From an uncultured bacterium (lineage in GTDB: Bacteria > Bacillota_I > Bacilli_A > RFN20 > CAG-826), in contig CASDWE010000002.1 in NCBI GenBank assembly GCA_949284685.1, positions 596,106-660,105 on the forward strand: DNA of 64,000 nucleotides, given 5' to 3'. The notes beneath the pieces are model-generated. The model searched no databases, was not told where the DNA came from, and saw nothing but the letters and a program-made list of their open reading frames with translations. A program made the position numbers and the translations under genes. Each line of letters opens with the position of its first letter. Position 1 is the stretch's first letter. This document shows positions 46,849 to 64,000 of the stretch, one piece after another.

Positions 46849-46924
46849 GCCTACTTAGCTCAGTCGGTAGAGCTATCGGCTGTTAACCGATCGGTCGTGG
46901 GTTCGAGTCCCTCAGTAGGCGCCA
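46849..46924 (+). tRNA. tRNA-Asn, anticodon GUU
   Basis: The acceptor stem gcctact/agtaggc pairs perfectly. The anticodon arm is atcgg-ctGTTaa-ccgat and the T-loop is ttcgagt, with an encoded CCA. Confidence 0.75.
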
Positions 46925-46929
46925 ATTTT

Positions 46930-47006
46930 GGCCCGTTGGAGAAGTGGCTTAACTCATATGCCTTTCACGCATACACTCATGGGTTCGAATCCCGTACGGG
47001 TCACCA
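46930..47006 (+). tRNA. tRNA-Glu, anticodon UUC
   Basis: The acceptor stem ggcccgt/acgggtc has one G-U pair. The anticodon arm is tatgc-ctTTCac-gcata and the T-loop is ttcgaat, with an encoded CCA. Confidence 0.75.
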
Positions 47007-47019
47007 TTAGAAAGATACT

Positions 47020-47050
47020 CGCTAGAATTGTAATGATTCTAGCGTTTTTT
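47020..47050 (+). terminator. Rho-independent terminator after the tRNA-Asn/tRNA-Glu pair
   Basis: cgctagaat-tgtaatg-attctagcg has a 9-bp perfect stem and is followed by TTTTTT. Confidence 0.55.
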
Positions 47051-47274
47051 CATTATTCATAGGCATTTTTATTACTTTTTATAAGTTTTAAATATCTATG
47101 AAGTAGAATTTTTGACTTTAATACATATCAAAAATGCAAAAATGTGATACAATAAAAGCATTATTTAATGATAAGTTTTTATTTGAATTAACTATTGACG
47201 TTATCTTTAATATGTAATAAATGCCTGATTTCAAATAATAATTATTATTGAAGGAAAGATTGATTGACTAATTT

Positions 47275-48237
47275 ATGACTCAAGACGAAAAATTGATATA
47301 TTTAAATGAAATTGTTAAAAATAATTTTACAAGTGAATATAAGGGCCCTTTAATTTTGTATAAATATAGACCATTTGATGAGTATACTTTTGAAATGCTA
47401 GATAATGATTATATTTTCTTGTGTCCAGCCGAAAAAGAAGATGATGAAACTGAGTGCTTAACTACAACGAATCTTAATGAAATGTTAGATCCTAAGACTG
47501 GTAATTTATCAAAAAAATACTTAAATAAAATCGTTAGTTTGATAAAACCTAGTTCAACCGATAAGAATTATGAAATTGCTAAAGATAAAGTTTTTGAAAT
47601 TGCTGATAAAGAAGGTACTAATCCAATAATTTTTAATAAAGATTTTGCTATAGAACTTAAAAAAATGGCACCAGAAGGTACAGATGTTGGTCCAATAATA
47701 AAGGCAATTGAAAACATACCAGAAATGCTTAATAAGCCGGAAATGAGCAAAACTCTTGAACCAGCCTTCAAATTAGCAATTGATGCAAGAAAGAAAATTG
47801 GTATATGTTCATTAGCTGAAACAAATAATATAGATTATATGTGGAAGAATTACGCTCAAGAATCTTCTGGCTATTGTATTGAATATGACTTAAATGATTA
47901 TGAACTAGTAAAGAATATTTTACCTGTTATTTATCAAGATGAAAGAGAAACTAATATAATAGTTCAGTTTACAGGCACTATGCTAGGCTTACTTATATGT
48001 GCTATCAGCAAAGGATTAATACCTGCAGATGCGTCACACTTTATTAGATTATTCTTAACAAAATATAAGAAGTGGGAATATCAAAATGAGTGGAGATATA
48101 TAGGTAGTGCTAATGACAAGCCTAAGGCTCCAAAAGTAAAAACAATTTACTTAGGAAAGAATGTTACTGCTGAGAACGAAATAGAAATGAGAAAATATGC
48201 AGCTTTAAAGAGCATACCAGTTATAAAACTTAATTAG
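47275..48237 (+). CDS. DUF2971-like protein (defence-island associated), tentative
   Basis: The N-terminal region LILYKYRPFDEYTFEMLDNDYIFLCPAEKEDDETE resembles the ...lyKYrs...N-DpfE signature of the DUF2971 family. Confidence 0.45.
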   Translation: MTQDEKLIYLNEIVKNNFTSEYKGPLILYKYRPFDEYTFEMLDNDYIFLCPAEKEDDETECLTTTNLNEMLDPKTGNLSKKYLNKIVSLIKPSSTDKNYEIAKDKVFEIADKEGTNPIIFNKDFAIELKKMAPEGTDVGPIIKAIENIPEMLNKPEMSKTLEPAFKLAIDARKKIGICSLAETNNIDYMWKNYAQESSGYCIEYDLNDYELVKNILPVIYQDERETNIIVQFTGTMLGLLICAISKGLIPADASHFIRLFLTKYKKWEYQNEWRYIGSANDKPKAPKVKTIYLGKNVTAENEIEMRKYAALKSIPVIKLN

Positions 48238-48249
48238 GGAGGAAAGGCT

Positions 48250-49410
48250 ATGAAAATCCATAATATTCATATACATTTTGATTTTGGAAACTGTCTTGTG
48301 ATAAGAAACGATACTCCATTGCTTGATTGTTATCAAATCCAAAAAGATAATGCTAATGCAGCATTAATTGATAAAATTGAAAAAGAAACAAGTGGTAAGT
48401 TTGTATATTTCTTAATTGATATAAATCAAGCAAAGAACGTAAAAAGAAATATTTATATTGGAAAAACAAACAGCTTGATGAATCGAATTATCAGTCATAG
48501 AAAGAATAAAGACTGGTGGAATACGATTATCGTATTTGGTAACAAGTATTTATCTTCAGATGACATAGATGCTATTGAAAAGCTTCTTATTGAGGAATAT
48601 GAAAATTCTGATCTTTATACAATCAAAAATGATGTGGGATCTAATGCTAAATTAAGTGAGCAACATAATGATTATAGAGAATACATTGTTGATATTATGG
48701 ATTTTCTATCTTATGGAGTTACTAAAACTGTCATTACTCCTGAGACTAAAACTAATCAAGTGGTTATTCAAACAGCTGCTCAACCATTATCTAATTCTAG
48801 TAGACAAGAATCATTTAAATTTTCAATGTTAGATATAAAACCTGGTGAGATACTTTCATTTATTAACAATGATAAAGTAACTTGCGAAGTTGTTGATGAT
48901 AAGAATGTTAAATATAAAGGGAAGTTATATTCTTTAAGTTCTTTGGCAAAAGAATTATTGAATACTAATGTTCCTAAAAGAGGAACTGATTATTTTTTAT
49001 ATAAAGGTAAGACTTTAAGAGTTTTAAGAGATGAAAAGAATGGAATACAAGTTTCTGATGTTGAAAAAACTAATAATTGGATTATTTCTTGTAATAAAGA
49101 GTTCTATGATTTAGATAATGCATTAAACGAAATGAAAATTATTGATTTTAAACAAAATGCTAATGTTGAAGCTGGTAGTAAAGTATATATTTATTCATCA
49201 GGTGAAGATAAAAAATTAGTTTATATAACTGAAGCTGTTGTAGTTAATAAACCAGAACAGACTATAAATGACGATAAATATATAAAGAATAAGAGTGGTT
49301 ATGCTGATTCTAATAGATACATGGAACTTAAGCTAGTAAAAAAACTCGAATCTGATAAATTATCATTATCTGATTTAAAGAAAAATGGACTTAGAGGTAA
49401 CTTGCAATGA
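48250..49410 (+). CDS. GIY-YIG nuclease-family protein with a C-terminal extension (DUF4357-like), tentative
   Basis: FVYFLIDIN...NIYIGKTNSLMNRIISHRKN fits the GIY...YIG...R...H spacing. There is a GGGAGG RBS. Confidence 0.5.
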   Translation: MKIHNIHIHFDFGNCLVIRNDTPLLDCYQIQKDNANAALIDKIEKETSGKFVYFLIDINQAKNVKRNIYIGKTNSLMNRIISHRKNKDWWNTIIVFGNKYLSSDDIDAIEKLLIEEYENSDLYTIKNDVGSNAKLSEQHNDYREYIVDIMDFLSYGVTKTVITPETKTNQVVIQTAAQPLSNSSRQESFKFSMLDIKPGEILSFINNDKVTCEVVDDKNVKYKGKLYSLSSLAKELLNTNVPKRGTDYFLYKGKTLRVLRDEKNGIQVSDVEKTNNWIISCNKEFYDLDNALNEMKIIDFKQNANVEAGSKVYIYSSGEDKKLVYITEAVVVNKPEQTINDDKYIKNKSGYADSNRYMELKLVKKLESDKLSLSDLKKNGLRGNLQ

Positions 49411-49481
49411 CCTTGTAGAGTCCCTGTTGAATTACAAGCATATATAGATTTTATTATTAAGTAGAAAGGTGGTGAGACGAT

Positions 49482-51149
49482 ATGTCTTTATTTAAAGAAA
49501 AACCGATATTATTTGAAACAATGTACTTCAAAGGTGGAGATTATGCAGGTGCTTTCTTTTTAAAGAATGTCGTTGACAATCTTTCTTATATTGAAACAAC
49601 TTTATCTTCGTTTGATTACTCAATTAATTCTATTGAAGATTTGTTTGATTTTTTGTGGTTGTCAGACTTTATAGAGATGGCAAATGAATTAGATATATTT
49701 AAAATCGATGAGGATATTAAAACAAGAATTCGTAATCTTGCTGATTCTATATATACTAATCCAAAAGAGTTTATAAAGTTTATTAATAATGATCCTGAAT
49801 TGGTTTTTACAAAACAAAATATTAATAAACCAATGTATTGGCATCTTTACTTACCGAGAATGTTAAATCTATGCTTTAACAAATATTCAACATCATTGAG
49901 ACAAAATGTTTTTGACTTCATAGAAGAAAATCTATATTTGAATGTATTATCATCATTTGATGAGTACCAAAAGTATTATCTAAAACATAAAGAATCATTT
50001 AAAAAGTTATTTAATTCTTTGAAAGAAACCAGACCATTTGATGACCAGATTTATAAAAACTTTTTATTAAAAAAGAATGATATTATAGATCTCGAATTCT
50101 TAAAAGAACAAGCCACATTTATATGTGAAAGAGCATATGATGAAATAATAAAAATGGGGTTAGATTCAGAAAATAAAGAAATTATGCAAGCAGTTAATTT
50201 TTTTGATGAATATTATGAACTTGCTCGTTTTTATAAACTTAAATGTGCAAATAAATATAGTGCCTATAAACCAAAAATAGAAAAAGTGTTAAATGATTAC
50301 ATTGTTAAGCATGGTCAACATATGGATTTTGGTCCTATAGATTTAAAACCAGCGCTAGATATTTTTGAAAAATCAGATGATGTATATAGATTTTTTCAAC
50401 TAACACATAGCATGAAAGATGATAAATACTATAACAATTTAAATAATGTATTTGAAACTACTCCGCCTGATGGTTTATCAGAATTATTTCCACCGAGAGG
50501 TAAAGTTGGTAGTGAGAATTATCCTATCTATAGACAGGATCATATTGATTTATATCTTTCGATTAATTCGAGTATTTTAAATATGATAATAGTTCATCCA
50601 AAGTTATCTGTTGATTTTTCGAATTATATCGGTGCAATCTGCTCTCATGTTCAAACTAACTATTTTGATGATCAAATCAATATTTTCAAAGAAATCGGTG
50701 GAAGTTATGAGATGATTAGTAATCTTTATATGCTTAGAACAAAGAAGCAGAGTGACTCTTTATTGTATAAAGCATTATGTAACGGATGCTGTGTAAATTT
50801 ATGTGGAACCATTGAAAAGATACTAAGAAATATAATAATTAAAGAAGAATCAGACAATGTTTACATTGATGAAAGTAAACTCACATTAGGTCAAATTTTT
50901 AAAAGAACGCATAATTTATCATCAATTTCAAATGGTATTAAATACTATTTAAAATACATATTAATGACTGATGAAGAGACTTCACCAATAAAAGAAAAAA
51001 GACCAGGTAGGGATATAAGAAATTGGCAGATGCATAACGCAAATGATAAGTATGATAAAACAAGTTATCAATTATGCGTTGAACTATTCTATTTAACTAT
51101 ATCTCTTGTAGTTGATTTAGTTGTAGTATCGTTAAAATACGACGAGTAG
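49482..51149 (+). CDS. Hypothetical protein with a C-terminal HEPN-like Rx4H motif
   Basis: The 555-aa product has a C-terminal ...RPGRDIRNWQMHNANDKYD... (R-x4-H) motif, similar to the motif in the 58195 gene. Confidence 0.4.
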   Translation: MSLFKEKPILFETMYFKGGDYAGAFFLKNVVDNLSYIETTLSSFDYSINSIEDLFDFLWLSDFIEMANELDIFKIDEDIKTRIRNLADSIYTNPKEFIKFINNDPELVFTKQNINKPMYWHLYLPRMLNLCFNKYSTSLRQNVFDFIEENLYLNVLSSFDEYQKYYLKHKESFKKLFNSLKETRPFDDQIYKNFLLKKNDIIDLEFLKEQATFICERAYDEIIKMGLDSENKEIMQAVNFFDEYYELARFYKLKCANKYSAYKPKIEKVLNDYIVKHGQHMDFGPIDLKPALDIFEKSDDVYRFFQLTHSMKDDKYYNNLNNVFETTPPDGLSELFPPRGKVGSENYPIYRQDHIDLYLSINSSILNMIIVHPKLSVDFSNYIGAICSHVQTNYFDDQINIFKEIGGSYEMISNLYMLRTKKQSDSLLYKALCNGCCVNLCGTIEKILRNIIIKEESDNVYIDESKLTLGQIFKRTHNLSSISNGIKYYLKYILMTDEETSPIKEKRPGRDIRNWQMHNANDKYDKTSYQLCVELFYLTISLVVDLVVVSLKYDE

Positions 51150-51184
51150 TCTTGCATTTGTTTTTTATATTAATGAGGTAGAAT

Positions 51185-51901
51185 ATGAAATCATTGAATG
51201 AAATAAAGTTATCTATAATAGATGAATTATCTAAGAACAAAGCGTATGATTTACCAAATATATGTTCTGCACTAGGGTTGGAAGATGGTACTGAAAACGA
51301 AGCCTATAATAGTAAAAGAATGTATGTGAGTAAACGAATTAATCATCTTTCTAAAGTTGAAATAAATAAATTACTATATGCAATGAAAGAAAATTTTGAT
51401 ATTGACCTATTACCAGAAGAAAACTGTAACTTTGATAATCTAAAAAAAGTCTCTGAAGAAATAAATAGTGACTATATAAATGTACAAATAGAATTAATGA
51501 AAAAATTTCAAAAAGAAAATCCAACAGAGGCTATTGGTAAAGCGAAGGAACTTTTAGAAACTATTTGTAAAACCATTTTAAAAAGATTAAATATAGAATT
51601 CGATGAATCATGTGAAATCCAAGCCTTAGCAAAAGCAACTTATAAAGCCTTGAAATTATCTCCAGATGAAGTAAAGGATGGCCCTTTATCTCAAACAATA
51701 AAACAAATATTAGGTGGATTGAATAGTATTTCAAGTGGTTTGGCTAGTTTGAGAAACTCTTATGGAAGTGGACATGGCAAGGACGAAAGTTATAAGGGGC
51801 TTCCAGAAAGATATTCAAAGTTAGCAATTGGAAGTGTATCTACACTAGTGGTGTTTCTATGGGAAACAATGCTATATCAAATTGATAAAAATCAAGAGTA
51901 A
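51185..51901 (+). CDS. Abi_C-like abortive-infection protein (HEPN superfamily), tentative
   Basis: The C-terminal ...SSGLASLRNSYGSGHGKD... fits the Abi_C pattern R-N-x5-H-G. There is a GAGG RBS. Confidence 0.5.
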   Translation: MKSLNEIKLSIIDELSKNKAYDLPNICSALGLEDGTENEAYNSKRMYVSKRINHLSKVEINKLLYAMKENFDIDLLPEENCNFDNLKKVSEEINSDYINVQIELMKKFQKENPTEAIGKAKELLETICKTILKRLNIEFDESCEIQALAKATYKALKLSPDEVKDGPLSQTIKQILGGLNSISSGLASLRNSYGSGHGKDESYKGLPERYSKLAIGSVSTLVVFLWETMLYQIDKNQE

Positions 51902-52132
51902 ATAATTGTAGTGATTTTATTCTTAAACTTGCATTTAGTAGAAACTAATGGAATAAGTATGTTAAAACCTGTCGTTTGGGTGAAAAAAATAACATTAGCA
52001 AATTTAAGGTCAAATAACTGTAGAGTTATTGTAGGTTCAGTAAATTGATAAAATAACTCTTTTGTTATATAATTATACCGATAATCTAAAGTACCAGAAA
52101 GTTGAGGAAGGGCTCAAAGGAGGTACTTGTGT

Positions 52133-52363
52133 ATGGATTATCAAAAAGCCATATTAGATAAAGAAGCAACAAGTATTAAACTTAGGTCCCTTAGAATCAA
52201 AGCTAATCTAACACATGATAGACTAGCTGCATTACTTCAACTAAACACACCTCGTGTGATTTATGATTGGGAATGTGCAAAGAAGATGCCTAATGTTGAA
52301 AACTTGTATAATCTGGCTCTAATATTTAATATGAAAATGGAGGATTTACTTGTGACCAAGTAG
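52133..52363 (+). CDS. XRE-family helix-turn-helix transcriptional regulator
   Basis: The HTH_3 core LRSLRIKANLTHDRLAALLQLNTPRVIYDWECAKKMPNVENLYNLALIF is present. An AAGGAGG RBS lies 9 nt upstream of the ATG at 52133. The track's 52127 start is a TTG. Confidence 0.7.
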   Translation: MDYQKAILDKEATSIKLRSLRIKANLTHDRLAALLQLNTPRVIYDWECAKKMPNVENLYNLALIFNMKMEDLLVTK

Positions 52364-52672
52364 ATCCTTCTTTTTTATTTTTGAACTATAGTACATTTTT
52401 TATTCCTGGATTTATTGTTAAAATAATAACAGTATCTATGAATATGTCCGTTGATATTGAAATAAATTTCAATAATGTGATATAATTATATAAAGATACA
52501 TATGCAGGTTCTGAAACAGTGGAGTAAGAACTTTACCTATATGAAATGTTGGAACAAATCCTATGGTTGGGATATACCATATGAGGAGTAAACCAATAGT
52601 TAAAAGCTAATTTTCAAGAGTGGTATTGCGTGTCTAAACAAAATAACATAATAAGAGGAAGAATGTTATTGA

Positions 52673-52708
52673 AGTGGCGATAGGCTAATACCTACCGTCA
52701 CTTTTTTG
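52673..52708 (+). terminator. Intrinsic terminator (attenuator-like) at the end of a ~370-nt leader, 7 nt upstream of the operon RBS
   Basis: agtggcgatagg-ctaata-cctaccgtcact forms a 12-bp stem with one G-U pair and one mismatch, followed by TTTTTTG. The AAGGAGG RBS and the ATG at 52731 follow. Confidence 0.5.
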
Positions 52709-52730
52709 TATATAAGGAGGTGTCAATAAC

Positions 52731-53660
52731 ATGAAAAAGAAAAGCAAAGTCATCGGTAAAGACTATGATAAATTAGAAAAAGATAATAGATTCGATCAGA
52801 TTGATTATTATGGTCTTATTGCTAAAGATGGCAGAATTAAAATTGACACAAAGAGATATAAAAAATTCTTTACTATTCCTGATACTAAAATAGAAAGAAG
52901 ACAATCTGTTTATTACCTTCCAACAAAGCAACATAGATCCGATTATAAATGTAATTGGTTCAGAGATTTGTTAGCAGGTTATAAACAATTGTGGTTTAGA
53001 GAATATAAAAGTTTTATTGATAGCATTAAGACACCAAAGCAAGTAGAAGATAGTGCGAGATTAGATTATTTAGCTGATGGTGTTCTTGAGTACGATGAAG
53101 CTAATGCAAAAGCATTTATTGCAGGTATGAAAAGAAGTGCTGACTATAAAGTGATTATTAAATCTTTATATGCTCAATTCTTCCATCAAATGATGTCTAG
53201 CATTGATGCTTTATGTTTAAAGATGTTAACTGCCTGTGGTTATAAAGAAGAAGATTATACTAAGAAACAATTTGATATTTATATTCAAGGTTTGCAAGGT
53301 AATAATGCATTATCATTCAGACAATACGATAATTATCAATTATATGATAGAGCATTTACTGTTTGGAACTTCCTAAAGCATAACTCTCTTAGATCATATA
53401 AGATCTTGAAGCAATGGTATCCTAAAATGGTATGGGATCCAGAAGAGAAATATCAAAATGGTGAATCTGCACTTACTGTTGTTAAATTAGATGAGAAATT
53501 CATCTTAGATTGTATTGATAACTTACATTTATTCTTTGATGAATTATGTGCGAGAGCTTTTGGTGAAAATGCTGATGATGCACAATGGGATTATGATGAT
53601 TACTTCTTAGACGTCGTACAAGATGAAATAGATGTTATTGTTAATCCACTAGGTATATAG
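52731..53660 (+). CDS. Hypothetical protein, first gene of the helicase operon
   Basis: The 309-aa product has a strong AAGGAGG RBS and no recognisable catalytic motif. Confidence 0.45.
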   Translation: MKKKSKVIGKDYDKLEKDNRFDQIDYYGLIAKDGRIKIDTKRYKKFFTIPDTKIERRQSVYYLPTKQHRSDYKCNWFRDLLAGYKQLWFREYKSFIDSIKTPKQVEDSARLDYLADGVLEYDEANAKAFIAGMKRSADYKVIIKSLYAQFFHQMMSSIDALCLKMLTACGYKEEDYTKKQFDIYIQGLQGNNALSFRQYDNYQLYDRAFTVWNFLKHNSLRSYKILKQWYPKMVWDPEEKYQNGESALTVVKLDEKFILDCIDNLHLFFDELCARAFGENADDAQWDYDDYFLDVVQDEIDVIVNPLGI

Positions 53661-53672
53661 GAGGGCGGAAGA

Positions 53673-56600
53673 ATGGCATATTTATTTCTATCTTTTACTG
53701 ACAGATTGAATAATGGTTCTAATTTTAAAAGTGAATTATATAATCAATCTCTAACTGAACAATTTGAATATATCCAAAAAAGAATCCCTCTTGAAAGACA
53801 AGTTAGTAGCTTTAGATCATTTATAGAAGAATGCTTTACTACAGGAATGATGAAGAAATATTACATTTCTTGCCCTAACTTCTTAAGAGAAAAAGAATCT
53901 TCAAAAAGTGGTAAAGTGCAATATCTTGATAATGTAGTTGTACGTCCAGAATTAACTTTATCAATGAGAAAAGTGTTACCTGATAATCAAAACATAATTC
54001 TTATCGGTAAGATTGTAGAAGGTGGCAAACAAAAACATTTAGAGGTAAAAGGGATACAATTAATAGATTCCTCTATGTCTTCACCTAATGATATTGTTAT
54101 TTCTGCAGCTGCATGTAATTCATTTTCTGAAGAAAAAAGAGCAAGCATGTATGGTGGTACATTTGCTGTTAACATATGGTCGGTTCCAAATGTTCCTTAT
54201 GAAGATACTGTATTTACACCTAATTTTGTATATGAACTAATTCAATCATGCTGGACTGTATCTAAGCCAGAGCAAATTAGACAATCTTATGATATTTGGA
54301 ATAAATACATTGAATTTAGAAAGTACTATCTTCAAGAACAATCAAAGCGTAATTTTAAATTAGATAGAGCTATGTTTGTTGAAGCATATGCCGTCAATAG
54401 AAAAGACTACAAAAAGAATGCTTCAATTTATGATGAATATCTACTTGATGGACGAGATGAGTTTAAATGGGGAGATATGATTGTTTTATCTGAAAAGATA
54501 GAAGATGCTGAAGAATTCCCACTTATTAGATTAGATATTGAAAGAAATAGAAAAGCTTTTAATGAAGCTAAAGTTACAAAACGTGGAAAATTAGTTAATG
54601 AAGAAGAACGTAAGATTCGTTCATTATCTAGTGATAATGTATTTATTACTGCTATTGATCCTGAAAGTAAATCACAGCATAACGATAGACAGGTTACTTT
54701 TGGTGAATTATTAAATGCTGGATATGCATTAGGTGATAGATTTAAAATTGTTTCTTATGATATCGAACCTACTGAGCATTTAGAAGAATTAGATCAAGTA
54801 TATACAAAAGATATTGATAACTCATATAAAAATATAGATGCTAAGTTTGAAAAGATTATTAAAGAAGAAGTAAAACAAGCAGTTACTTTATATGAAAAAG
54901 AATTAAATAAACAAGCTAAAGAAAGAATTGATTCTTATAAAAATGAACTAGATAGTTCTTTAGAACAAGATGTTTTAGAAAATAAAGATAAAAATATTAT
55001 TAGTTTAATTGATAAAAAGAAAAAAGAAATTGAAGCTAATGTTAAAAAGAATAATAAACAAGATAAAAAAGAAAAAGATAATGAATATGCATTAAGAATA
55101 AAAGCGTTAATTGAAGATGAAATATCTAAAATTGATGTCAAGTCATATTATGTTGAAAGAAATTCTAAATTATTACAAGATAATGCGAATAAGATTGAAG
55201 TTGAACTAAAGAGATTATTGGCACAGTATGAAGTAAAAAAGAATTCTGAAATTACTAACAAATATAAAGATGATGTTAGAAATGAAAAGATTAAATCAAA
55301 AGAAGAACTTGATGCTAAGTTAAAGTCTGATAAAGAAAAAGCAATTGAAGAAGAAACAATTATTAGATTCTCGTTATATTTTAGATTAGGTGATTCTAAT
55401 AATTTTATTTCTGATAAGCAAAAAAAGGTTGTAGATTCTTGTGAATATATTGTTTATGATAATCGTGCTGAAAAGGCAAAGATATCAAGACAAGAAGCAG
55501 CTTTAGATAATTTCTATTCTGGATATGTTAAGAATCCATATCTTTCAACATATCTTTTTAATCCTGAAGAATTAGATACTGTTAAAGCTGAACCTAGCGA
55601 TTGGATATGGTATTTAGATTCTCTTAATGAAAAGCAAAAAGAGGCTGTAAGAAAAGCAGTTTCAAGTAACGGTATATTCTTACTTCAAGGTCCTCCAGGA
55701 ACTGGTAAAACACAAGTAATTGCTGAAACAGTAGCTCAGTTAATTAAAAAAGGTAAGAAGGTATTAATTTCATCAGAAACTCATAAGGCAATTGATAATG
55801 TATTTGAAAGATTACCTAAGATTGCTGAAATTGTACCTATTAGATTAATTCCTTCTAATAATGATAAAAAGAAAGAAAACGAATATGATCCAAAATTCCT
55901 AGTAGATAATTTCTATTTAAATATTTCTTCTAATATGAAGAAAGCTGTTAATAGATATAAGAATTTTGAAAAGAACAAAATAGAATTTGCTGAAAACTTT
56001 GATAAATTAAAGTTGGCAAAAGCCAAAATAGAAAAATCTCAAAAGGTTTTAGATAAGGCTAACGAAGAAATCAAAAAGTTTGAAGACAATGCTAAAGACA
56101 TTAATTCTAAGATATCAGTATTAAATGATAAAAAGGACTTGGTCAGAATTGATATTGATATCTTAAGAAGAACTAAACGTCATATTGAAAATGATAATTT
56201 GAGACCTGATGAAGATGTAAAGGTTGACTTGATTGTTGATGTAAGAAAGAAACTAGAACCTTTATTTGAAAAAGATGTTTATATCGATGATGATTTAGGC
56301 CAATTATTAAAAAATATTAATTTAATTAAAAATGATGAAATAGAACGTGAGTTAGCAGTCATTAATCCTGAATCCAATAAAACTATTCTTGAAGTTAAGA
56401 AAAATGATTTAAAGGCTGAATTAAATAAATATGTTGATGAATTGGGAGACATTATTAATCCTAATAATGAAGAAAAAGTTGAAGAAATTAAAAATGAATT
56501 AAGAAAGGTTTTAAAAGAACTTAAGGCTGAATCAGTTGACATATCTTTAAGCGATTTAAAACTTAATAAGATTTTTAATTATTCATATTTAGTTGCTAAT

Positions 56601-58202
56601 ATTTCTCTAATTCCAGAAGTTATTAGAACTGTAAAAGATAGAATTATTGAGATTAAATCTTCAACGATAGAAGTTCTTAATAAAGAATTACGTACTATTG
56701 AAGATAAACAAGCAGAACTAGATAAAGAAATAGATTCATTAAAGCAACAAATAAAAGTAATTAATGAAAATATTATTGATATTCAAGAAAGAAATGATGT
56801 TAAAGATATTCAAGAAGCTAAATACAAGCTTGAGAATGATTTAATAAAATTCTTTAAAGATTTTGAAATTGCTGAACCATATAGAGATGTAGATGAAGGT
56901 CTAAAGATTATTAAACGTAAATGGTCTGAGCTTGAAGATGATTTCCAAGCGAAAGAACAAGAAAATAGAGAAAAAATACCTATGTATGAAAAGATCGCAA
57001 ATTACATCACTAGTGAAGATGTAATTGAAGAAGATAGAAAGGTATTTACTAAAGACTTGTTTGAAAATGCTAATGTATTTGGTATTACATGTACATCTAA
57101 CGATAGATTCAGTGGAAGAAATGTTGATGCATTATCTGAATATAATATCGATGAGATTGATATTAAGTCTGTAGGTATTGATGTAGTTATTATTGACGAA
57201 GTTTCTAAATCAAGTTTTATAGATTTATTGATACCTATTCTTTATGGTAAAACAGTTATTCTAGTTGGAGACCATAGACAATTACCTCCAATGTATGAAT
57301 TCTCAAAATTAAGAGATGATGATTTTGAAGGATTAGATGAGACAATTATTAATAAAGAAATTAATAAAGAGTTCACTAAATTGTATGAAGAGTGTTTCTT
57401 CAAAACTCTATTTGAAAGAATACCAGATAGTTATAAAACTATGTTAGTTCAACAATATAGATGTCATGAACATATTATGAATGTATTTAACCATTTCTAT
57501 AAAGGCGAATTAAAACTAGGTTTTGCAGGTCAAAACAATAATAAACATCATAATGTTAAATTACTATCAAATGGTAGAAATATTATCGAACCAGATAAAC
57601 ATATTTATTTTGTTGATTGTAAGCAAAATGAAACGCATGAAGCTGATTCAACATCTATGTACAATACTGGTGAAGCTAGAGTTGTAGTTGAATTAATCAG
57701 AAAATTAAATACATACTTTAAATCGCATCCTGAACTTGAAAAGTTAAGCATTGGTGTTATTTGTACTTACGGAGACCAAGCTAGAAAAGTAAAAGAATTA
57801 CTTAAGAGTGAAAAGGTTAAAACTGATGCATTTAAAACTGACGTTGAAAAGATGATAGTCTCTACAGTCGATGATTTCCAAGGCGATGAAAGAGATATTA
57901 TTATCTTGACTACAGTTAGAAATCCTGAGAATCCAAAAAGAAGTAATCCTGGATTCATCTTGGCTTATCAAAGAATTAATGTTGCCTTATCTAGAGCTAG
58001 AAGAATGCTTGTTATGGTAGGTAATAGAAAATACCTAGAAGAAAAAGGTGTGATAGATCTACCAGATGTCTATGGTCGTGTTGGTAAAGAGCAACGAAAC
58101 TTTAGAGTTTATGAAGAAATCCTATCTACTATTGAACGATATGGTAAGGTCATTGAGGATATTGATGTATTAGATGATAAGGAGGCGAGAATAAATGGAT
58201 AA
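53673..58202 (+). CDS. Giant Upf1/DNA2-like superfamily-1B helicase (1509 aa) with an unassigned ~640-aa N-terminus and a ~500-aa Lys/Glu coiled-coil insertion
   Basis: Motif I is LLQGPPGTGKTQ and motif II is VVIIDEVSKSSF. VGDHRQLPPM is motif III and QYRCHEHI is motif IV. VSTVDDFQGDERDIIILTTVR and YQRINVALSRARRMLVMVGN are motifs V and VI, the AAA_11/AAA_12 architecture. There is a GGAGGG RBS. Confidence 0.8.
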   Translation: MAYLFLSFTDRLNNGSNFKSELYNQSLTEQFEYIQKRIPLERQVSSFRSFIEECFTTGMMKKYYISCPNFLREKESSKSGKVQYLDNVVVRPELTLSMRKVLPDNQNIILIGKIVEGGKQKHLEVKGIQLIDSSMSSPNDIVISAAACNSFSEEKRASMYGGTFAVNIWSVPNVPYEDTVFTPNFVYELIQSCWTVSKPEQIRQSYDIWNKYIEFRKYYLQEQSKRNFKLDRAMFVEAYAVNRKDYKKNASIYDEYLLDGRDEFKWGDMIVLSEKIEDAEEFPLIRLDIERNRKAFNEAKVTKRGKLVNEEERKIRSLSSDNVFITAIDPESKSQHNDRQVTFGELLNAGYALGDRFKIVSYDIEPTEHLEELDQVYTKDIDNSYKNIDAKFEKIIKEEVKQAVTLYEKELNKQAKERIDSYKNELDSSLEQDVLENKDKNIISLIDKKKKEIEANVKKNNKQDKKEKDNEYALRIKALIEDEISKIDVKSYYVERNSKLLQDNANKIEVELKRLLAQYEVKKNSEITNKYKDDVRNEKIKSKEELDAKLKSDKEKAIEEETIIRFSLYFRLGDSNNFISDKQKKVVDSCEYIVYDNRAEKAKISRQEAALDNFYSGYVKNPYLSTYLFNPEELDTVKAEPSDWIWYLDSLNEKQKEAVRKAVSSNGIFLLQGPPGTGKTQVIAETVAQLIKKGKKVLISSETHKAIDNVFERLPKIAEIVPIRLIPSNNDKKKENEYDPKFLVDNFYLNISSNMKKAVNRYKNFEKNKIEFAENFDKLKLAKAKIEKSQKVLDKANEEIKKFEDNAKDINSKISVLNDKKDLVRIDIDILRRTKRHIENDNLRPDEDVKVDLIVDVRKKLEPLFEKDVYIDDDLGQLLKNINLIKNDEIERELAVINPESNKTILEVKKNDLKAELNKYVDELGDIINPNNEEKVEEIKNELRKVLKELKAESVDISLSDLKLNKIFNYSYLVANISLIPEVIRTVKDRIIEIKSSTIEVLNKELRTIEDKQAELDKEIDSLKQQIKVINENIIDIQERNDVKDIQEAKYKLENDLIKFFKDFEIAEPYRDVDEGLKIIKRKWSELEDDFQAKEQENREKIPMYEKIANYITSEDVIEEDRKVFTKDLFENANVFGITCTSNDRFSGRNVDALSEYNIDEIDIKSVGIDVVIIDEVSKSSFIDLLIPILYGKTVILVGDHRQLPPMYEFSKLRDDDFEGLDETIINKEINKEFTKLYEECFFKTLFERIPDSYKTMLVQQYRCHEHIMNVFNHFYKGELKLGFAGQNNNKHHNVKLLSNGRNIIEPDKHIYFVDCKQNETHEADSTSMYNTGEARVVVELIRKLNTYFKSHPELEKLSIGVICTYGDQARKVKELLKSEKVKTDAFKTDVEKMIVSTVDDFQGDERDIIILTTVRNPENPKRSNPGFILAYQRINVALSRARRMLVMVGNRKYLEEKGVIDLPDVYGRVGKEQRNFRVYEEILSTIERYGKVIEDIDVLDDKEARING

Positions 58203-60327
58203 GTTTAAATTAGAAACTTCTATGCAATTTCCATTCTTTAAATTGAATGAACTTGCTATATATTCAGAAGTTAAAAAGCCTAGTGGTGTAGCCTATATTT
58301 TACTAGTACTTATCAGTGAGTCAAAAAATAAAAATGATAGATTATCTAAAGTGCTAGAGAATTTTGGTATACCTAAATCTTTACATTATATTTTTGCTGA
58401 TAATGTTCAATACCTTATGAATCAGGGAATACTAGAAGAATTTAACTTTTACAAAACTGAATTTGATAGTTATCTTATAGGATCATTTCAATTTACTTCA
58501 AAAGGTAAAAAAATATTTGCAGAAGAATCTATTCCTACAGGTGTTAATAAAGAATTAAAGGTTGCAGTCTTTTATGATATTGCAATGAATGCATTATCTT
58601 TAAAAATGGATGTTGATTTAGATCCTAAACCATTAATGGACTGTGCAATTACACCTGAATTTATGAATTCATTTAAATGTGAAAAGAATGTAGAAAATTT
58701 CTTAAACCTTCAAAAAGGTAAAGGAATAGGCATAAAGAAAGAAGAAATAATTACTAGCGTAGAGTTATTAAATCAAGAAAATTGGATTGGAAAATATGAT
58801 TGTGACATGAATATCAAAGGCGATGATATAGAAATCAAATTTGATGAAGCGTTACTACAAAAATTCTTTGATGCTAATTACAATCAAGAAATGGTTAATT
58901 TAGCCATATCATATAAAAACAAGTTCAAGTTTAAATCTTCTTTTAAAGATAATCTAAAACTAAGTAGTTATGGTTTTGATAGAATTGCTGGAATTATTAT
59001 TCCAAAAGAAATTGATGATGTGTTAAAGCAAAAAAATCAATTATTACTTACAAAAGGTAATTATAAAACTTCAAATGGTTATATGGTTACTAGTGCTGAT
59101 TCACTTGCTGGATTTGATGATACAATTGAATTCATACAAGTTGATATGCATGATTCGATTTATGCATATATTCCAGGCAACTTTAATTTTAATAATAGTA
59201 TATTTGGAACTATTACAATTCCTTTGGCTGTTAAAATTAAACTAACTGATGAGGAATTGAAAAATGTTATTAGACCATATGTACTTTCTTTATCTTCATA
59301 TAGCGAAGATAACTTTAGAGAGCTTGTTAAGGTAACAAATATCACTGATGACTTAAAGTTAGCAAAAGAGATTATTGAAGGTTATGTTAATAAAAATGCA
59401 GAAAGCAATATTGTCTTGTTAAATGAAATGAAGCCATATGCAATATCTAATGGTGGTATTTCAAATATCTATAGAGAGCTATTAGAAAAGAACTATAACA
59501 ATTATATGGATAATTTAACTGAAGACAATCTTGAAACAGCATTAAAGATAACTGCTTCAGTTCCTAAATTCCTAAATATTCCAAATAAGGACGTTTTATC
59601 TAAAATCTTTAAGAATGTAAAGGCTAGAAGTGAATTGAAGATTTATGAAACTTTAGTAAATAAAGGATTTGATAAATCACTAGTTGTTCTATATGTTAAC
59701 CCAGTAAATGAAATACTTAAGTTGAGAGATTCTGAAGAGAAGAGTCTTATTGATTTAATTAATTATGATGATGCTTTGGAAGAAATGAAACGCATAACAA
59801 ATATAAGTGATTATAAGAGTTATTTGTATGATGAAGAAAAGATAAATCATAATGAATTTAAAACAAATTATAACAAAGCATTCAATCTTCAAAAGAATAT
59901 TTTAGTGTTTAAAAATGGCAATGAAGCATTATTTGCAAATTATGATGGTTTTATGAAGCTGTTCTCTACAATTAATGATGATATTAATATGGTTGAGTCA
60001 GCTCTTAAAAATCCTAATAATCTGAAACTAGATTTAATTGAAAAGAAAATATCTAGTGGTGAATATCAATTTGTATTTGTTAATCTATCTGCAAAATTAG
60101 AAACAATTCTTAAAAACAAGTATAAATTAGAAGGTAAATTATCTGACATGCTAAATGATGCAAGATCTAATGGTATAATCGATAAAAAGATTGTCAGTGA
60201 TTTGCATGATTTTAGAGATAACAGAAATGCAAATGTTCATCCTGAAGATAGAACGTCTAACTATGATGCAAATGATCTCAGAAGATGGGCAAAAGAAATC
60301 TTTGATTTGGAGGTGAAAAAGAAATGA
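58195..60327 (+). CDS. Hypothetical 710-aa protein with a C-terminal HEPN-like (DUF4145-type) Rx4H motif
   Basis: The C-terminal ...LHDFRDNRNANVHPEDRTSNYD... (R-x4-H) is present. There is an AAGGAGG RBS. It overlaps the helicase gene by 8 nt. Confidence 0.45.
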   Translation: MDKFKLETSMQFPFFKLNELAIYSEVKKPSGVAYILLVLISESKNKNDRLSKVLENFGIPKSLHYIFADNVQYLMNQGILEEFNFYKTEFDSYLIGSFQFTSKGKKIFAEESIPTGVNKELKVAVFYDIAMNALSLKMDVDLDPKPLMDCAITPEFMNSFKCEKNVENFLNLQKGKGIGIKKEEIITSVELLNQENWIGKYDCDMNIKGDDIEIKFDEALLQKFFDANYNQEMVNLAISYKNKFKFKSSFKDNLKLSSYGFDRIAGIIIPKEIDDVLKQKNQLLLTKGNYKTSNGYMVTSADSLAGFDDTIEFIQVDMHDSIYAYIPGNFNFNNSIFGTITIPLAVKIKLTDEELKNVIRPYVLSLSSYSEDNFRELVKVTNITDDLKLAKEIIEGYVNKNAESNIVLLNEMKPYAISNGGISNIYRELLEKNYNNYMDNLTEDNLETALKITASVPKFLNIPNKDVLSKIFKNVKARSELKIYETLVNKGFDKSLVVLYVNPVNEILKLRDSEEKSLIDLINYDDALEEMKRITNISDYKSYLYDEEKINHNEFKTNYNKAFNLQKNILVFKNGNEALFANYDGFMKLFSTINDDINMVESALKNPNNLKLDLIEKKISSGEYQFVFVNLSAKLETILKNKYKLEGKLSDMLNDARSNGIIDKKIVSDLHDFRDNRNANVHPEDRTSNYDANDLRRWAKEIFDLEVKKK

Positions 60328-61412
60328 GCCAGCAAGTAACTGTTGATTACCAAGGTGTATCTATTCAAGTGCAAGCTAAATGTGATACAGCTGTTCATTC
60401 GCTATGTCAAATAGATAAAGTGCTTGATAGAATACATAAAACAGCAGATAAGCTAGAAACATCAAAAGTAAAAGAATATGAAGCTTATTTGCAAAAATCC
60501 AAGGAAACAATCAAAGAAAAGATTGAAGCGTTTAAGAAGACTCTAGAAAAATATAAAGAAGCTAGGGCTTATTCGGTTAATAATCATCAACCAGATTATC
60601 AACAATTCATTAATTTTACTAATAAAGTTCAAGCTGAATCACAAGAATTAATTAGAACAGTAAATGAGTTAACTGGTTCTAAACTTGCAGTAATTGATCA
60701 GATGATTGATGAAGGATTATTAAATGCTGGACAAGAAACTACTCAAGCTATGCTTGATAAATTACATGGTGTTATTTCGATTTCAGATGATGTTTTATTA
60801 AAGATTAATAGTATAGAAGATGTTTCATTAAGAGAATTAGCTTATAGAGAAATTCTTAAAAATGATAAACTTAGTTTTGATGAAGCAATTACTAAAGCAC
60901 AAGAAGAATATGATGTTCTCTTAGGTAAACAAACAAAGAAAGTTATTCAAGAATATAAAGAAGAACTTACTGCTAAGGGTATTACTGTTGAAGAATTAGA
61001 TAAAGCTAAATCTATTGATGAAGCTAATGCTATTGCTAATGAAGCAATTACTGATGAAACAGTAAGAAAAGAAACTTTAAAAGTTATTATTAAAGCAATC
61101 AAAGATAGAGGATTCATTGTTGATACAAAGAAGAATCTTAAAATCGATAAAGAAAGAAATATTGTTAAGCTTGTTGCATTAAAGGCATCTGGACAAATGG
61201 CTGAATTTGAAATTCAACTTAATGGTAAGTTTATGTACCACTTTGATGAATATGAAGGTCATGCATGTAAGAAAGATATAGAACCATTCTTAGAAGATTT
61301 AAAGAATATCTACGATATCAATATTCTTCATGAAGAAGTAACGTGGGAAAATCCAGATAAGATTCAAACTCAAAAATATCAATACATAAACAAAAATAAG
61401 GGTACTAATTAG
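60324..61412 (+). CDS. Hypothetical coiled-coil protein (362 aa), possible partner of the downstream ClpB-like ATPase
   Basis: There is a GGAGG RBS and a 4-nt overlap with the upstream gene. It has no catalytic motif. Confidence 0.4.
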   Translation: MSQQVTVDYQGVSIQVQAKCDTAVHSLCQIDKVLDRIHKTADKLETSKVKEYEAYLQKSKETIKEKIEAFKKTLEKYKEARAYSVNNHQPDYQQFINFTNKVQAESQELIRTVNELTGSKLAVIDQMIDEGLLNAGQETTQAMLDKLHGVISISDDVLLKINSIEDVSLRELAYREILKNDKLSFDEAITKAQEEYDVLLGKQTKKVIQEYKEELTAKGITVEELDKAKSIDEANAIANEAITDETVRKETLKVIIKAIKDRGFIVDTKKNLKIDKERNIVKLVALKASGQMAEFEIQLNGKFMYHFDEYEGHACKKDIEPFLEDLKNIYDINILHEEVTWENPDKIQTQKYQYINKNKGTN

Positions 61413-61423
61413 GAGGTAAACAT

Positions 61424-63238
61424 ATGTCTTTACAAAATAGTTTTAATAAAATCAGAAGAAATGCTGGAATTAAAAAATGTGTCATGATTGATGGCAATGT
61501 TGGTGACGTTTATTTAAATGAAAAAAATAATATCGTCACATTAAGAGAATATCTTGAAGCAATGTTCAAAGATATGGATTATCAAGACATTGTTTACTGG
61601 GATAGAGTTGAAGGTGCAACTGGTGCAATTGATAAGCTTACTTTAACAGATGAAGTTGAAGTAGAAGGTGATGCATATGATTTAGGTGATGAAGAAGAAA
61701 CACCTAAAGCACAACAAGGCTTATTTAAATCACCAGCTGAAATCTTAAATGTTGTTTATAAGAATGTAATTGATAAAAAGAAAAAAGTAGCTTTTATTAT
61801 CAATTGGTCTGAATATTTATTCAGTGTTAATGGGTTAAGCGATGATGAAAGACAAAATATTACTTTATTAGGTAAAGCTCTAAAGGATAGAAAAGTAGAT
61901 TATTTAAACACTGACTGCAACGAAAGTGTTGTTGTCATTATTTTAAATAAAGCGTCTGGATTACCATTATCTTTCTATCAAGGAAATCCTGAAGTTGAAA
62001 TTGTAACATTACAAAAACCAGATAGAGAAGAAAGAAAACAAATGATTCAAAAGATAGAAGATTCATTTGAAGTTAGATTAAAATCTGGTACTAGCTCATT
62101 GCTTGATAATGAAAATATCGATTGTATTGATATGCTTGAAGATTTCACTAATCGTGAGATTATTCAATTATCAAGAATGTCTAGAAAAGAAGATAAGATG
62201 ACTTTTGATAAGTTATTCTATTTATTCAAATATGGTGAAAAAGAAAATCCATGGGAAAAATTAGAACAATCTAGAGTTAAGAATATCAAAAAAGAATTAT
62301 CTGACAGAGTTATAGGTCAAGAAGAAGCAATTGATAAAATTGAAAAGACTGTTGTTAAAGCATATATGGGTTTAACAGGCCTTCATAAAACTTCATCTAG
62401 ATCAATGCCAAAAGGTGTATTCTTCTTTGTTGGTCCTACTGGTGTAGGTAAAACTGAGCTTTCAAAGGCTTTAGCTAAATTCTTATTTGGTGATGAACAA
62501 GCTTGTATTAGATTTGATATGTCTGAATATGCTCAAGAGAATAGTGATCAAAAATTAATTGGTGCAGCTCCTGGATATGTTGGATATGAAGAAGGTGGCC
62601 AATTAACTAATGCAATTAAAGAACATCCATTCTCAGTTGTATTATTTGATGAAATTGAAAAGGCTGCAAAACCTAATCCACGTATTCTAGATATTTTCTT
62701 ACAAATTCTAGAAGATGGTCGTTTAACAGATTCTAAAGGTGAAACTGTATACTTCAGCGACACAATTATAGTATTCACATCTAACTTGGGTGCTAACCAA
62801 GTTCAAGCATCATCTGATAAAGAAGGTGTAGCAAAAGAATTCATTAAGATTGTAAAAGATTACTTTGATAATGAATTAAAGAGACCAGAATTATTAGGAC
62901 GTATCGGATACAATAATATCGTTCCATTTAATTTCATTCAAGATAGAGATTTCCAAGTTAAGATTTGTAAGAACAAACTAAAACCAGTTATCAGGGGAAT
63001 AGAAGAAAAATATAAACTTGAATTGGAATTTGAGAAAGAATTGGAAGCTATCGAATATATCTTAAAAGCTGTAGATTCATCTAAAGGTGGTCGTGATATT
63101 TTAAATGCTATCAATGATAGATTATTAGATCCACTAGCAATGTTCTTATTTGAAAATAAAGATGAATTACGTTCTTTAAAAGGAAGCAGAATTATTACAA
63201 AGGTAACAAAAGATGGATTCAGCTTTGACTTCGATTAA
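61424..63238 (+). CDS. ClpA/ClpB-D2-like AAA+ ATPase with an unassigned ~300-aa N-terminal domain
   Basis: RVIGQEEAI...FFFVGPTGVGKTELSKALA...LIGAAPGYVGYEEGGQLT...VVLFDEIEKAAKPNPRILDIFLQILEDGRLTDSKG...VFTSN is the canonical ClpB second nucleotide-binding domain, with sensor and D2-small domain. There is an AGGAGG RBS. Confidence 0.75.
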   Translation: MSLQNSFNKIRRNAGIKKCVMIDGNVGDVYLNEKNNIVTLREYLEAMFKDMDYQDIVYWDRVEGATGAIDKLTLTDEVEVEGDAYDLGDEEETPKAQQGLFKSPAEILNVVYKNVIDKKKKVAFIINWSEYLFSVNGLSDDERQNITLLGKALKDRKVDYLNTDCNESVVVIILNKASGLPLSFYQGNPEVEIVTLQKPDREERKQMIQKIEDSFEVRLKSGTSSLLDNENIDCIDMLEDFTNREIIQLSRMSRKEDKMTFDKLFYLFKYGEKENPWEKLEQSRVKNIKKELSDRVIGQEEAIDKIEKTVVKAYMGLTGLHKTSSRSMPKGVFFFVGPTGVGKTELSKALAKFLFGDEQACIRFDMSEYAQENSDQKLIGAAPGYVGYEEGGQLTNAIKEHPFSVVLFDEIEKAAKPNPRILDIFLQILEDGRLTDSKGETVYFSDTIIVFTSNLGANQVQASSDKEGVAKEFIKIVKDYFDNELKRPELLGRIGYNNIVPFNFIQDRDFQVKICKNKLKPVIRGIEEKYKLELEFEKELEAIEYILKAVDSSKGGRDILNAINDRLLDPLAMFLFENKDELRSLKGSRIITKVTKDGFSFDFD

Positions 63239-63767
63239 GTTTAATGTAGCATATATAAAATTATGTACTAAAACTGAAGGTCCATATAAGAGATGCTGTA
63301 TTTGGTTTCAAGGATGTAACATTAATTGTAGAGGATGTTGTAATAACGATTTACAACCATTAGTTCCAAATCATATAGTTACATTAAAAGAACTTATCGA
63401 TATAGTTAAAGAAGCTAAAGATAAGTTTGATATAGAAGGTATAACTCTTAGTGGTGGTGAACCTTCTTTACAAACTGGTTTAAAATTCTTCAATAATGAA
63501 ATTCATAAATTAGGATTAGGAATTATTATGTTTTCAGGAAAAAATAAACAACTTCTTGACAAAGAACTAGTTGAATCTGTTGATTTATTAATAGATGGTC
63601 CATTTATTGAAGAACAACTTGATGATAAAAGAGTTTTATTAGGTTCTAAAAATAAACGATTATCTTTTATTACTGATAGATATAAAAAAGAAGAAAATTA
63701 TTTCAATAATCCTATAGCTATAGAAGAAGTAACAGCTGAGGATTATATCTTCATAAATGGAGACTGA
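63213..63767 (+). CDS. Small radical-SAM / 4Fe-4S activase-like protein (NrdG/QueE-like)
   Basis: The cluster motif FQGCNINCRGC is CX3CX2C. ITLSGGEP (SAM-binding) is present. The 184-aa size is typical of NrdG-type activases. Confidence 0.7.
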   Translation: MDSALTSIKFNVAYIKLCTKTEGPYKRCCIWFQGCNINCRGCCNNDLQPLVPNHIVTLKELIDIVKEAKDKFDIEGITLSGGEPSLQTGLKFFNNEIHKLGLGIIMFSGKNKQLLDKELVESVDLLIDGPFIEEQLDDKRVLLGSKNKRLSFITDRYKKEENYFNNPIAIEEVTAEDYIFINGD

Positions 63768-63769
63768 TT

Positions 63770-64000
63770 ATGGATAAAAAGAGAATAGAAAGTGAAATGA
63801 GAGAATTAGAACTTAAAATTCATTATCATTTCAATGACATATCTTGGCTTGCTAAAGCTATGGGTTCTATAAAAGTACCTGTTCCAGGTCAAGGAAAGAA
63901 TGGTTCTGAATATTCTAATGAAGGCTTGGCTACTGTTGGTGATACTATATTAAAATCAGTTATTGCTGATAAGTTTTATAGAGAAGGAATAAGAACCAAA
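63770..64000 (+). CDS. Divergent RNase III-like protein, N-terminal 77 aa; the gene continues beyond the window
   Basis: LELKIHYHFNDISWLAKAMGS...SEYSNEGLATVGDTILKSVIADKFYREG aligns with the RNase III N-terminal LxxxLGYxFxDxxLLxxALTHxS...NERLEFLGDAxLxxVVxxxLY. The ERLEFLGD signature has diverged to EGLATVGD. The ATG is 2 nt after the radical-SAM stop. Confidence 0.6.
   Translation, partial: MDKKRIESEMRELELKIHYHFNDISWLAKAMGSIKVPVPGQGKNGSEYSNEGLATVGDTILKSVIADKFYREGIRTK

Follow-up and report, generated by a model that had tools for sequence, protein, structure and literature searches.

Mokosh type I pairs an MkoA helicase with a nuclease. Dodola is a two-gene dolA/dolB system in which DolB carries a ClpB-like domain (PMC11514479); a further candidate, PDC-M37B, sometimes duplicates Dodola calls (PMC11811056). 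Here we analyze a locus in a 64,000-nucleotide (nt) stretch of DNA, hereafter the window, from an uncultured bacterium of the GTDB lineage Bacillota_I; Bacilli_A; RFN20; CAG-826 (assembly GCA_949284685.1, contig CASDWE010000002.1, positions 596,106 to 660,105), in which a gene encoding a 362-residue protein, termed C, lies directly upstream of a gene encoding a 604-residue Clp-like ATPase. An earlier note on this DNA had read these two genes as a Dodola-like DolA/DolB pair. Our analyses indicate instead that they are adjacent subunits of a conserved cassette of five genes in fixed order, encoding a superfamily 1 (SF1) helicase, a nuclease-bearing protein termed B, C, the ATPase and a radical S-adenosylmethionine (SAM) enzyme.

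Both open reading frames described in the earlier note were confirmed on the plus strand, at 60324-61412 and 61424-63238. The start codon of the C gene and the stop codon of the preceding 710-residue B gene overlap as ATGA, and 11 nt containing a strong Shine-Dalgarno sequence separate it from the ATPase gene. We completed the locus past the end of the window from a longer public contig encoding an identical ATPase (L001; window position equals L001 position plus 51423). The result is a seven-gene transcription unit comprising, in order, gene A, the helicase, B, C, the ATPase, the radical SAM enzyme and an RNase III-like gene. The unit is bounded by a promoter-like site and by a terminator located 3' of the RNase III-like gene, beyond the end of the window (L001 13011-13035), and its genes are joined by 4- to 26-nt overlaps or by 11- to 13-nt gaps.

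The core order helicase-B-C-ATPase-radical SAM is kept in loci L083, L090 and L091-L096, with C proteins at most 61% identical, and in L090 an integrase follows the cassette. A tblastn search with the ATPase N-domain alone returned 12 plasmids, 7 of them conjugative, and the same five genes were found in the same order on plasmids of Photobacterium, Polaromonas, Moellerella (6 records), Acinetobacter and Leisingera. PGAP annotates the successive plasmid slots as an "AAA domain-containing protein" (1270-1630 residues), a "PIN domain-containing protein" (620-820), a hypothetical protein (~370), an "AAA family ATPase" (~615) and a "4Fe-4S single cluster domain-containing protein" (~200). When compared to their window counterparts, the plasmid helicases match at E-values of 1e-56 to 1e-75, the ATPases at 1e-116 to 1e-157 over their full length, the radical SAM proteins at 1e-26 to 1e-37 and the C proteins at 1e-19 to 1e-25, with an hhalign probability of 99.8% over the C-terminal domain of C; the N-terminal half of plasmid B aligns with window B over 335 columns at 86% probability. 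The ATPase N-domain yielded no match in cultured phage genomes, and no DNA match to the Moellerella cassette was found in complete E. coli genomes. Integrases, transposases, ArdA and toxin-antitoxin genes lie beside the cassettes. The plasmid locations and integrase neighbours, together with the defence-island-like region in the window, argue that the cassette moves horizontally. In the lineage of the window, the five-gene core is preceded by a gene that varies between loci and is extended by a mini RNase III.

The full operon is also held by six IMG/VR contigs catalogued as viral (L091-L096), one of which (L091) encodes an ATPase 100% identical to that of the window over residues 1-604. Given this identity, and given that the window comes from a 722-kb scaffold that also carries genes for tRNAs and aminoacyl-tRNA synthetases, the contigs called viral may be proviruses, islands or misclassified host DNA. 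The cassette occupies 9.1-18.3 kb of the Acinetobacter plasmid pNDM1_010055 and 178.8-188.8 kb of the Moellerella plasmid pW18-2-a. Directly 3' of it on pNDM1_010055 (L110 11718-13700) lie genes for a 173-residue "AAA family ATPase", a 328-residue "radical SAM protein" and a hypothetical protein, which may constitute another module of an ATPase and a radical SAM enzyme.

The C-terminal part of the window ATPase (residues 278-604, 62255..63238, plus strand) consists of a D2 AAA+ module and small domain, with a GYVG pore loop. Residues ~278-580 correspond to the Clp/Hsp100 D2 module (Pfam AAA_2, 2.6e-51), the NCBIfam ClpB, ClpV and ClpA models align at second-domain positions only, and PDB matches to ClpE, ClpC and ClpB (1e-58 to 1e-53) extend through the small domain. 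The Walker A (GxxGxGKT), Walker B (DE), sensor-1 (TSN), GYVG and sensor-2 Arg elements are invariant or near-invariant in 54 full-length relatives. The Pfam, NCBIfam and PDB results thus bear out the complete ClpB-type second nucleotide-binding domain that the earlier note had placed in the C-terminal half of the protein. For the N-terminal region, which the same note had considered novel, sequence libraries gave no match to residues 1-277 (61424..62254, plus strand), but structural modelling predicts a degenerate AAA+ tier (pseudo-D1), with the alpha/beta core and helical lid of the AAA+ fold and no Walker A, the sequence GNVGD standing in its place.

Several lines of evidence separate this ATPase from housekeeping Clp proteins. 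Against the ClpB model TIGR03346 it aligns over model positions 552-849 only and scores 255 bits, compared to a cut-off of 1232; it falls far below every housekeeping Clp equivalog cut-off; and it lacks a ClpB-type N-domain, an M-domain and a Walker A in its first tier, which places it outside ClpB/Hsp104. The [LIVM]G[FL] ClpP-docking loop, present in ClpC and ClpE controls, is missing in the window ATPase and in 47 of 49 family members. Without this loop, the ATPase should be a stand-alone threading or remodelling motor, like ClpB and ClpV, and not the partner of a protease. When representatives clustered at 50% identity were searched exhaustively, the N-domain family comprised at least 59 clusters of ~600-670 residues, aligned from the first 40 residues to beyond residue 570. 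A profile search with the N-domain returned mostly fragments, and a contig scan with the full-length ATPase alignment was swamped by housekeeping Clp D2 domains, with family members at only 6 of 80 loci. The window protein belongs to a distinct ATPase family with a pseudo-D1 tier and mobile, defence-like contexts, and is not a housekeeping ClpC/ClpE paralog.

Two sets of relatives of this ATPase deserve separate mention. A 310-residue open reading frame in L085/L086 (10001-10933) contains the N-domain only (55% identical) and stands alone beside a WYL-domain regulator, which makes it either a leftover or a case of independent use of the pseudo-AAA+ domain. The relatives in L103 (8001-9830) and L105 (8001-9899) show 35-37% identity, and their hosts are assigned genetic code 4 because the reading frames are intact only if TGA is read as Trp.

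The resemblance of the window ATPase to DolB proved to be generic. The PADLOC DolB model matches it at 72 bits (1.1e-20), over the AAA core only (model positions 116-280 of 375), and matches other family members at 57-65 bits, while the model of PDC-M37B, an unpublished candidate, scores 115 bits (1.1e-33). Housekeeping ClpE, ClpC and ClpB from unrelated genomes, used as controls, score higher on both models (102-113 bits on DolB and 117-158 on PDC-M37B), so that both matches reflect general similarity among Clp D2 domains. No operon protein matches the PDC-M37A partner, and the locus is thus not a PDC-M37 system. Searches against Pfam and PADLOC at E<=0.1 detected no DUF6414/DolA in the 362-residue product of 60324-61412, in other operon proteins or in their neighbours, and none in plasmid C proteins.

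The C gene (60324..61412, plus strand) encodes helical bundles followed by a conserved alpha/beta domain at residues ~233-350 (nt 61020-61373), marked by GF, YxGxxCxxD and WxNPD motifs. The C family comprises 245 clusters of uniform length, unannotated and with no Pfam domain. In the AlphaFold2 model (pLDDT 75), a strand at the N-terminus precedes the helical bundles and the C-terminal alpha/beta domain, and fold searches with C returned nothing specific. Conservation is concentrated in the C-terminal ~110 residues: among 11 C sequences ranging from Mollicutes-like bacteria to Alpha-, Beta- and Gammaproteobacteria, the invariant positions are E, R, GF, A, G, A.F, G, F, Y, G..C..D, L, Y and W.N-PD. 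This C-terminal region appears to be a new conserved domain, distinct from DolA. A homolog of C also lies directly upstream of the ATPase gene in L102, an otherwise different operon (2e-25), and two further groups of proteins encoded upstream of the ATPase, in L005/L106 and in L103/L105, match the C domain with moderate confidence (64% and 73.5%; E 3-7e-5). The upstream neighbours in L004, L087, L007 and L008 group as a family of their own, for which no link to C was detected. The presence of C homologs directly upstream of the ATPase across phyla supports C and the ATPase as functional partners.

The earlier pairing of the two genes therefore stands as far as their adjacency is conserved, and fails in that the partner is not DolA and the pair is not stand-alone; with no DUF6414/DolA match and a generic DolB match, the Dodola assignment itself is not upheld. 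The note had named two results that would count against its proposal, namely no DUF6414 similarity in C and grouping of the ATPase with housekeeping ClpC/ClpE; we obtained the former, and the ATPase does not group in that way. Its fallback proposal, an unrelated use of a Clp-type unfoldase in immunity within a larger operon, fits the evidence.

The gene following the ATPase (63213..63767, plus strand) overlaps it by 26 nt and encodes a 184-residue NrdG/PflA-like radical SAM enzyme. This protein matches Fer4_12 (8.6e-23), Radical_SAM (1.8e-10) and NrdG (2.1e-17; 63.5 bits, under the equivalog cut-off of 126), and the CX3CX2C and GGEP motifs are kept in 8 homologs. A radical SAM gene is present at 23-24 of 29 distinct ATPase-family loci, usually overlapping the ATPase gene or a few nt from it; among housekeeping Clp loci, 1 of 74 has such a gene within 10 kb. 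The pair recurs in operons of diverse composition. It is flanked by FHA and PP2C genes in L003 (FHA-radical SAM-ATPase-PP2C), and in L007 and L008 (Pseudomonas and Bradyrhizobium) it is followed by a kinase fused to an Hhe/ProA-like helicase and by a 450-residue protein, in the order ATPase-radical SAM-kinase/helicase fusion-450 residues. Larger arrangements are seen in L102 (C-ATPase-radical SAM-SHOCT-vWA-vWA-PP2C-kinase-SF1 helicase) and on a Clostridia plasmid, L111 (DUF4011 helicase-kinase-X-FHA-radical SAM-ATPase-PP2C-kinase), and smaller ones in L104 (radical SAM-ATPase-kinase-HerA/FtsK-like) and L106 (radical SAM-X-ATPase-WD40). Loci L087, L088 and L089 hold degraded copies, with ATPase-radical SAM adjacency seen in L089. 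Since the ATPase and the radical SAM enzyme are also paired with DUF4011 or Hhe/ProA-like helicases and with HerA/FtsK ATPases, we regard them as a core module and not as accessories. In the degraded copy on the Ottowia caeni chromosome (L087 10001-17248), the ATPase is broken into three fragments, and an opposite-strand ilvD gene lies between these fragments and the radical SAM and kinase genes.

Three further operon genes encode putative nucleic acid-processing proteins. The 1509-residue helicase (53673..58202, plus strand) is an SF1 Upf1/IGHMBP2-like protein of the MkoA family (AAA_11, 1.4e-28; AAA_12, 2.5e-43) with a ~650-residue N-terminal region without assignment and a long helical insert. 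Its helicase core matches PADLOC MkoA at 3.1e-93 (312 bits), and the Photobacterium helicase does so at 7.9e-93. Gene B (58195..60327, plus strand) encodes a 710-residue protein with an N-terminal scaffold and a C-terminal HEPN-type domain (residues 629-694, nt 60079-60276) carrying an RNANVH motif. The match is to DUF4145 (4e-05; 24.0 bits, above the gathering score of 23.1), a family that we take to belong to the HEPN superfamily. The RNxxxH of B is kept in three divergent homologs, including those of L083 and L090, in agreement with the Rx4-6H signature of the all-helical HEPN domains, and B is therefore a predicted RNase. The region of window B that aligns with the plasmid PIN proteins is its N-terminal half, and these proteins carry PIN_4 at the C-terminal position where window B has its HEPN domain, which points to the replacement of one RNase by another on a shared scaffold, as is typical of conflict systems. 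The last gene (166 residues in full, L001 12347-12847) starts within the window (63771..64000, plus strand) and is cut by its end. Its product matches Ribonuclease_3 (3e-06; 28.4 bits, above the gathering score of 27), has intact NEGLATVGD and HDPYIEAMVGA motifs with the catalytic acidic residues and has no double-stranded RNA-binding domain, resembling Mini-III. This gene is present in L091, L092, L094 and L095, and is missing in L090 and on all plasmids.

Taken together, these data suggest that the cassette is, with a probability somewhat above even, an RNA-directed system against phages or mobile elements that is as yet undescribed. PADLOC v2, PHROGs and NCBIfam (June 2026) hold no specific models for B, C, the ATPase family or the radical SAM family, and no description of this gene set was found in the open-access full-text literature. 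An RNA-targeting defence is proposed because the parts are RNA-centred: the helicase is of the Upf1/MkoA type, B carries a HEPN or PIN domain, and the window operon adds a mini RNase III. In the mechanism that we envisage, the helicase would sense or engage foreign nucleic acid, as sensor or motor, and the HEPN/PIN domain of B, with the RNase III-like protein in this lineage, would be the effectors that cleave RNA. The ATPase would assemble into a hexamer of two tiers, in which the pseudo-D1 ring would be structural and the D2 ring, bearing the pore loops and not docking ClpP, would be active. By threading or remodelling a partner, most likely C or a B-C complex, this hexamer would switch the nuclease on. 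Among possible substrates C is the best candidate, because its gene invariantly adjoins that of the ATPase. The radical SAM enzyme would most likely act on a protein substrate handled by the ATPase, or else make a modified nucleotide or small molecule, as viperins do. The RNA-targeting defence might be of the abortive-infection type.

Speculatively, the invariant YxGxxC loop of C is a candidate non-canonical site for the radical SAM enzyme. A more specific version, in which the NrdG-like enzyme is a protein-radical activase acting on C at the invariant Gly-x-x-Cys while the unfoldase presents or remodels C, is a long shot. If true, the cassette would be the first case of immunity in which a protein-based radical (glycyl or thiyl) acts as switch or executor, for instance through an oxygen- or radical-dependent self-cleavage freeing the HEPN/PIN RNase.

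Several observations weigh against an RNA-directed defence system organized in this way. No canonical glycyl-radical motif (RVxG[FWY]) was found in any operon protein, so that none of them stands out as the substrate of the activase-like enzyme. Furthermore, L103 and L105, from Mollicutes with genetic code 4, have the order helicase-X-Y-ATPase without a radical SAM gene, and the ATPase relatives of L004-L006 have neither a radical SAM gene nor a helicase, indicating that the radical SAM enzyme is not obligatory. We infer the defence role of every cassette member, as well as the contacts among C, B, the ATPase and the radical SAM enzyme; the structural claims come from AlphaFold models of moderate confidence, and the loci sampled are a few dozen, a modest sample and not a systematic census.

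Among the alternatives, the cassette could be a Mokosh subtype in which the MkoA helicase is essential, the RNase of B replaces the PLD protein MkoB, and the other three proteins of the cassette are lineage-specific accessories. The MkoA matches of the window and Photobacterium helicases reported above and the pairing of a helicase with a nuclease, as in Mokosh type I, speak for this interpretation, which we nonetheless consider rather unlikely. Searches of every operon protein against Pfam and PADLOC detected no MkoB or phospholipase D (PLD) domain, and the MkoC match covers the helicase core only. Moreover, C, the ATPase and the radical SAM enzyme are conserved across phyla as much as the helicase is, and the latter two also pair with unrelated helicases or with HerA/FtsK ATPases.

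It is also unlikely that the operon serves functions other than immunity, be it through a Clp paralog for housekeeping or stress proteostasis, in RNA processing or quality control, or as a module for plasmid addiction or competition. The D2 domain is nearest to ClpE, ClpC and ClpB, proteins such as RNase III, HEPN/PIN nucleases and Upf1-like helicases also serve normal RNA metabolism, and location on plasmids would suit an addiction module. These readings are at odds with the low ClpB score of the ATPase and its lack of a ClpP loop, N-domain and M-domain, with the patchy spread over Mollicutes-like Bacillota, Clostridia and Alpha-, Beta- and Gammaproteobacteria, with the occurrence on plasmids and beside integrases or transposases, and with a HEPN-to-PIN swap and variable accessory genes typical of conflict systems. 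Finally, a Dodola variant embedded in a larger operon, with C as a divergent DolA and the ATPase as DolB, is barely credible, the DolB and PDC-M37B matches being surpassed by those of housekeeping Clp proteins, with DolB aligning to the AAA core only, and DUF6414/DolA being undetected.

Upstream of the cassette, the first operon gene, A (52731..53660, plus strand), encodes a 309-residue protein with no recognisable domain and no match in Pfam, PADLOC, NCBIfam or PHROGs. It occupies a variable position, being kept in L083 and L091 and replaced by unrelated genes in L092, L093 and L096. The promoter-like site of the operon, TTGAAA-18-TG-TATAAT (52457..52486, plus strand; L001 1034-1063), is identified by consensus match only, with 11 of 12 consensus positions matched. 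Between this site and gene A lies an untranslated leader of ~240 nt (52487-52730), at the end of which an imperfect hairpin and T-run (~52674-52712) just 5' of the ribosome-binding site could be an attenuator or a small RNA; Rfam searches on the leader gave sub-threshold noise only and no significant match. A 76-residue Xre-type helix-turn-helix (HTH) protein is encoded further upstream (52133..52363, plus strand; Pfam HTH_3, 2.4e-06), with its own promoter-like site (L001 622-650) and terminator (L001 916-947). A homolog of this small gene also lies upstream of the same operon in L083, and it may be the operon regulator.

The flank at 46849-52363 resembles a defence island, with tRNA-Asn and tRNA-Glu followed by island-type genes: one for a DUF2971 protein (47275-48237), two open reading frames without assignment, an AbiJ-like gene (51185-51901; Abi_C, 6.6e-26) and the small HTH gene. 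In the 555-residue product of the flank reading frame at 49482-51149, a C-terminal RNWQMH resembles the HEPN-like Rx4H motif, as judged by eye only.

Should the cassette be confirmed as a defence system, it would represent a widespread type, borne on plasmids, that combines two components rarely seen in prokaryotic immunity: a dedicated Clp-class unfoldase with a pseudo-ATPase ring and a radical SAM enzyme resembling glycyl-radical activases. The C-terminal part of C would be established as a new conserved domain, the exchange of HEPN for PIN on a single scaffold would offer a clean natural experiment on effector exchange, and MkoA-type helicases would be linked to effectors outside the PLD nucleases. 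The versions on proteobacterial plasmids, among them an NDM-1 plasmid of Acinetobacter and conjugative plasmids of Moellerella, can be cloned directly.

The comparison with known systems places the cassette near several of them. As in ClpB/Hsp104 and ClpV, the window D2 has all catalytic motifs, a Tyr pore loop and a small domain, and no ClpP-docking loop; the D2 motifs, the pore loop and the missing docking loop lead us to predict a hexameric threading motor. The window enzyme resembles NrdG and PflA, its best family matches, in being a small radical SAM protein with an N-terminal GxGxR...W/FxxGCx3Cx2C and GGEP, but it falls under both equivalog cut-offs, no glycyl-radical enzyme is encoded nearby, and genes of its type are almost always coupled to a Clp-like ATPase gene. 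To our knowledge, viperins are the precedent for radical SAM chemistry in anti-phage defence, and the similarity of the window enzyme to prokaryotic viperins (pVip) is generic only (27-31 bits). In the eLife 2020 paper on conflict systems, a radical SAM enzyme appears only in a different (FtsH-vWA) system. Likeness to TerY-P/kinase-phosphatase-vWA modules and to Hhe/ProA-type DUF4011 helicases is confined to the kinase-type operons (L102, L111, L007 and L008, the L008 helicase scoring 501 bits against the ProA cut-off of 1500), whereas the window cassette has no kinase, PP2C, FHA, vWA or DUF4011 helicase genes.

With Dodola, the cassette shares a defence-context operon in which a Clp/Hsp100 D2-type ATPase is encoded beside a protein of unassigned function. 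It differs in having no DUF6414 protein, in its five conserved genes, among them those for the helicase, the RNase and the radical SAM enzyme, and in an ATPase that has a pseudo-AAA+ first tier and is no nearer to DolB than ordinary ClpB, ClpC and ClpE are. With Mokosh type I, it shares an MkoA-family, Upf1-like SF1 helicase (~1e-93), a nuclease-bearing protein and an RNA-centred flavour. Its predicted nuclease, however, is a HEPN or PIN domain on another scaffold, MkoB/PLD being the Mokosh feature, and nothing in Mokosh corresponds to C, the Clp-like ATPase or the radical SAM gene. We class the cassette as a putative defence operon of the helicase-nuclease kind with an unprecedented core of unfoldase and radical SAM enzyme.

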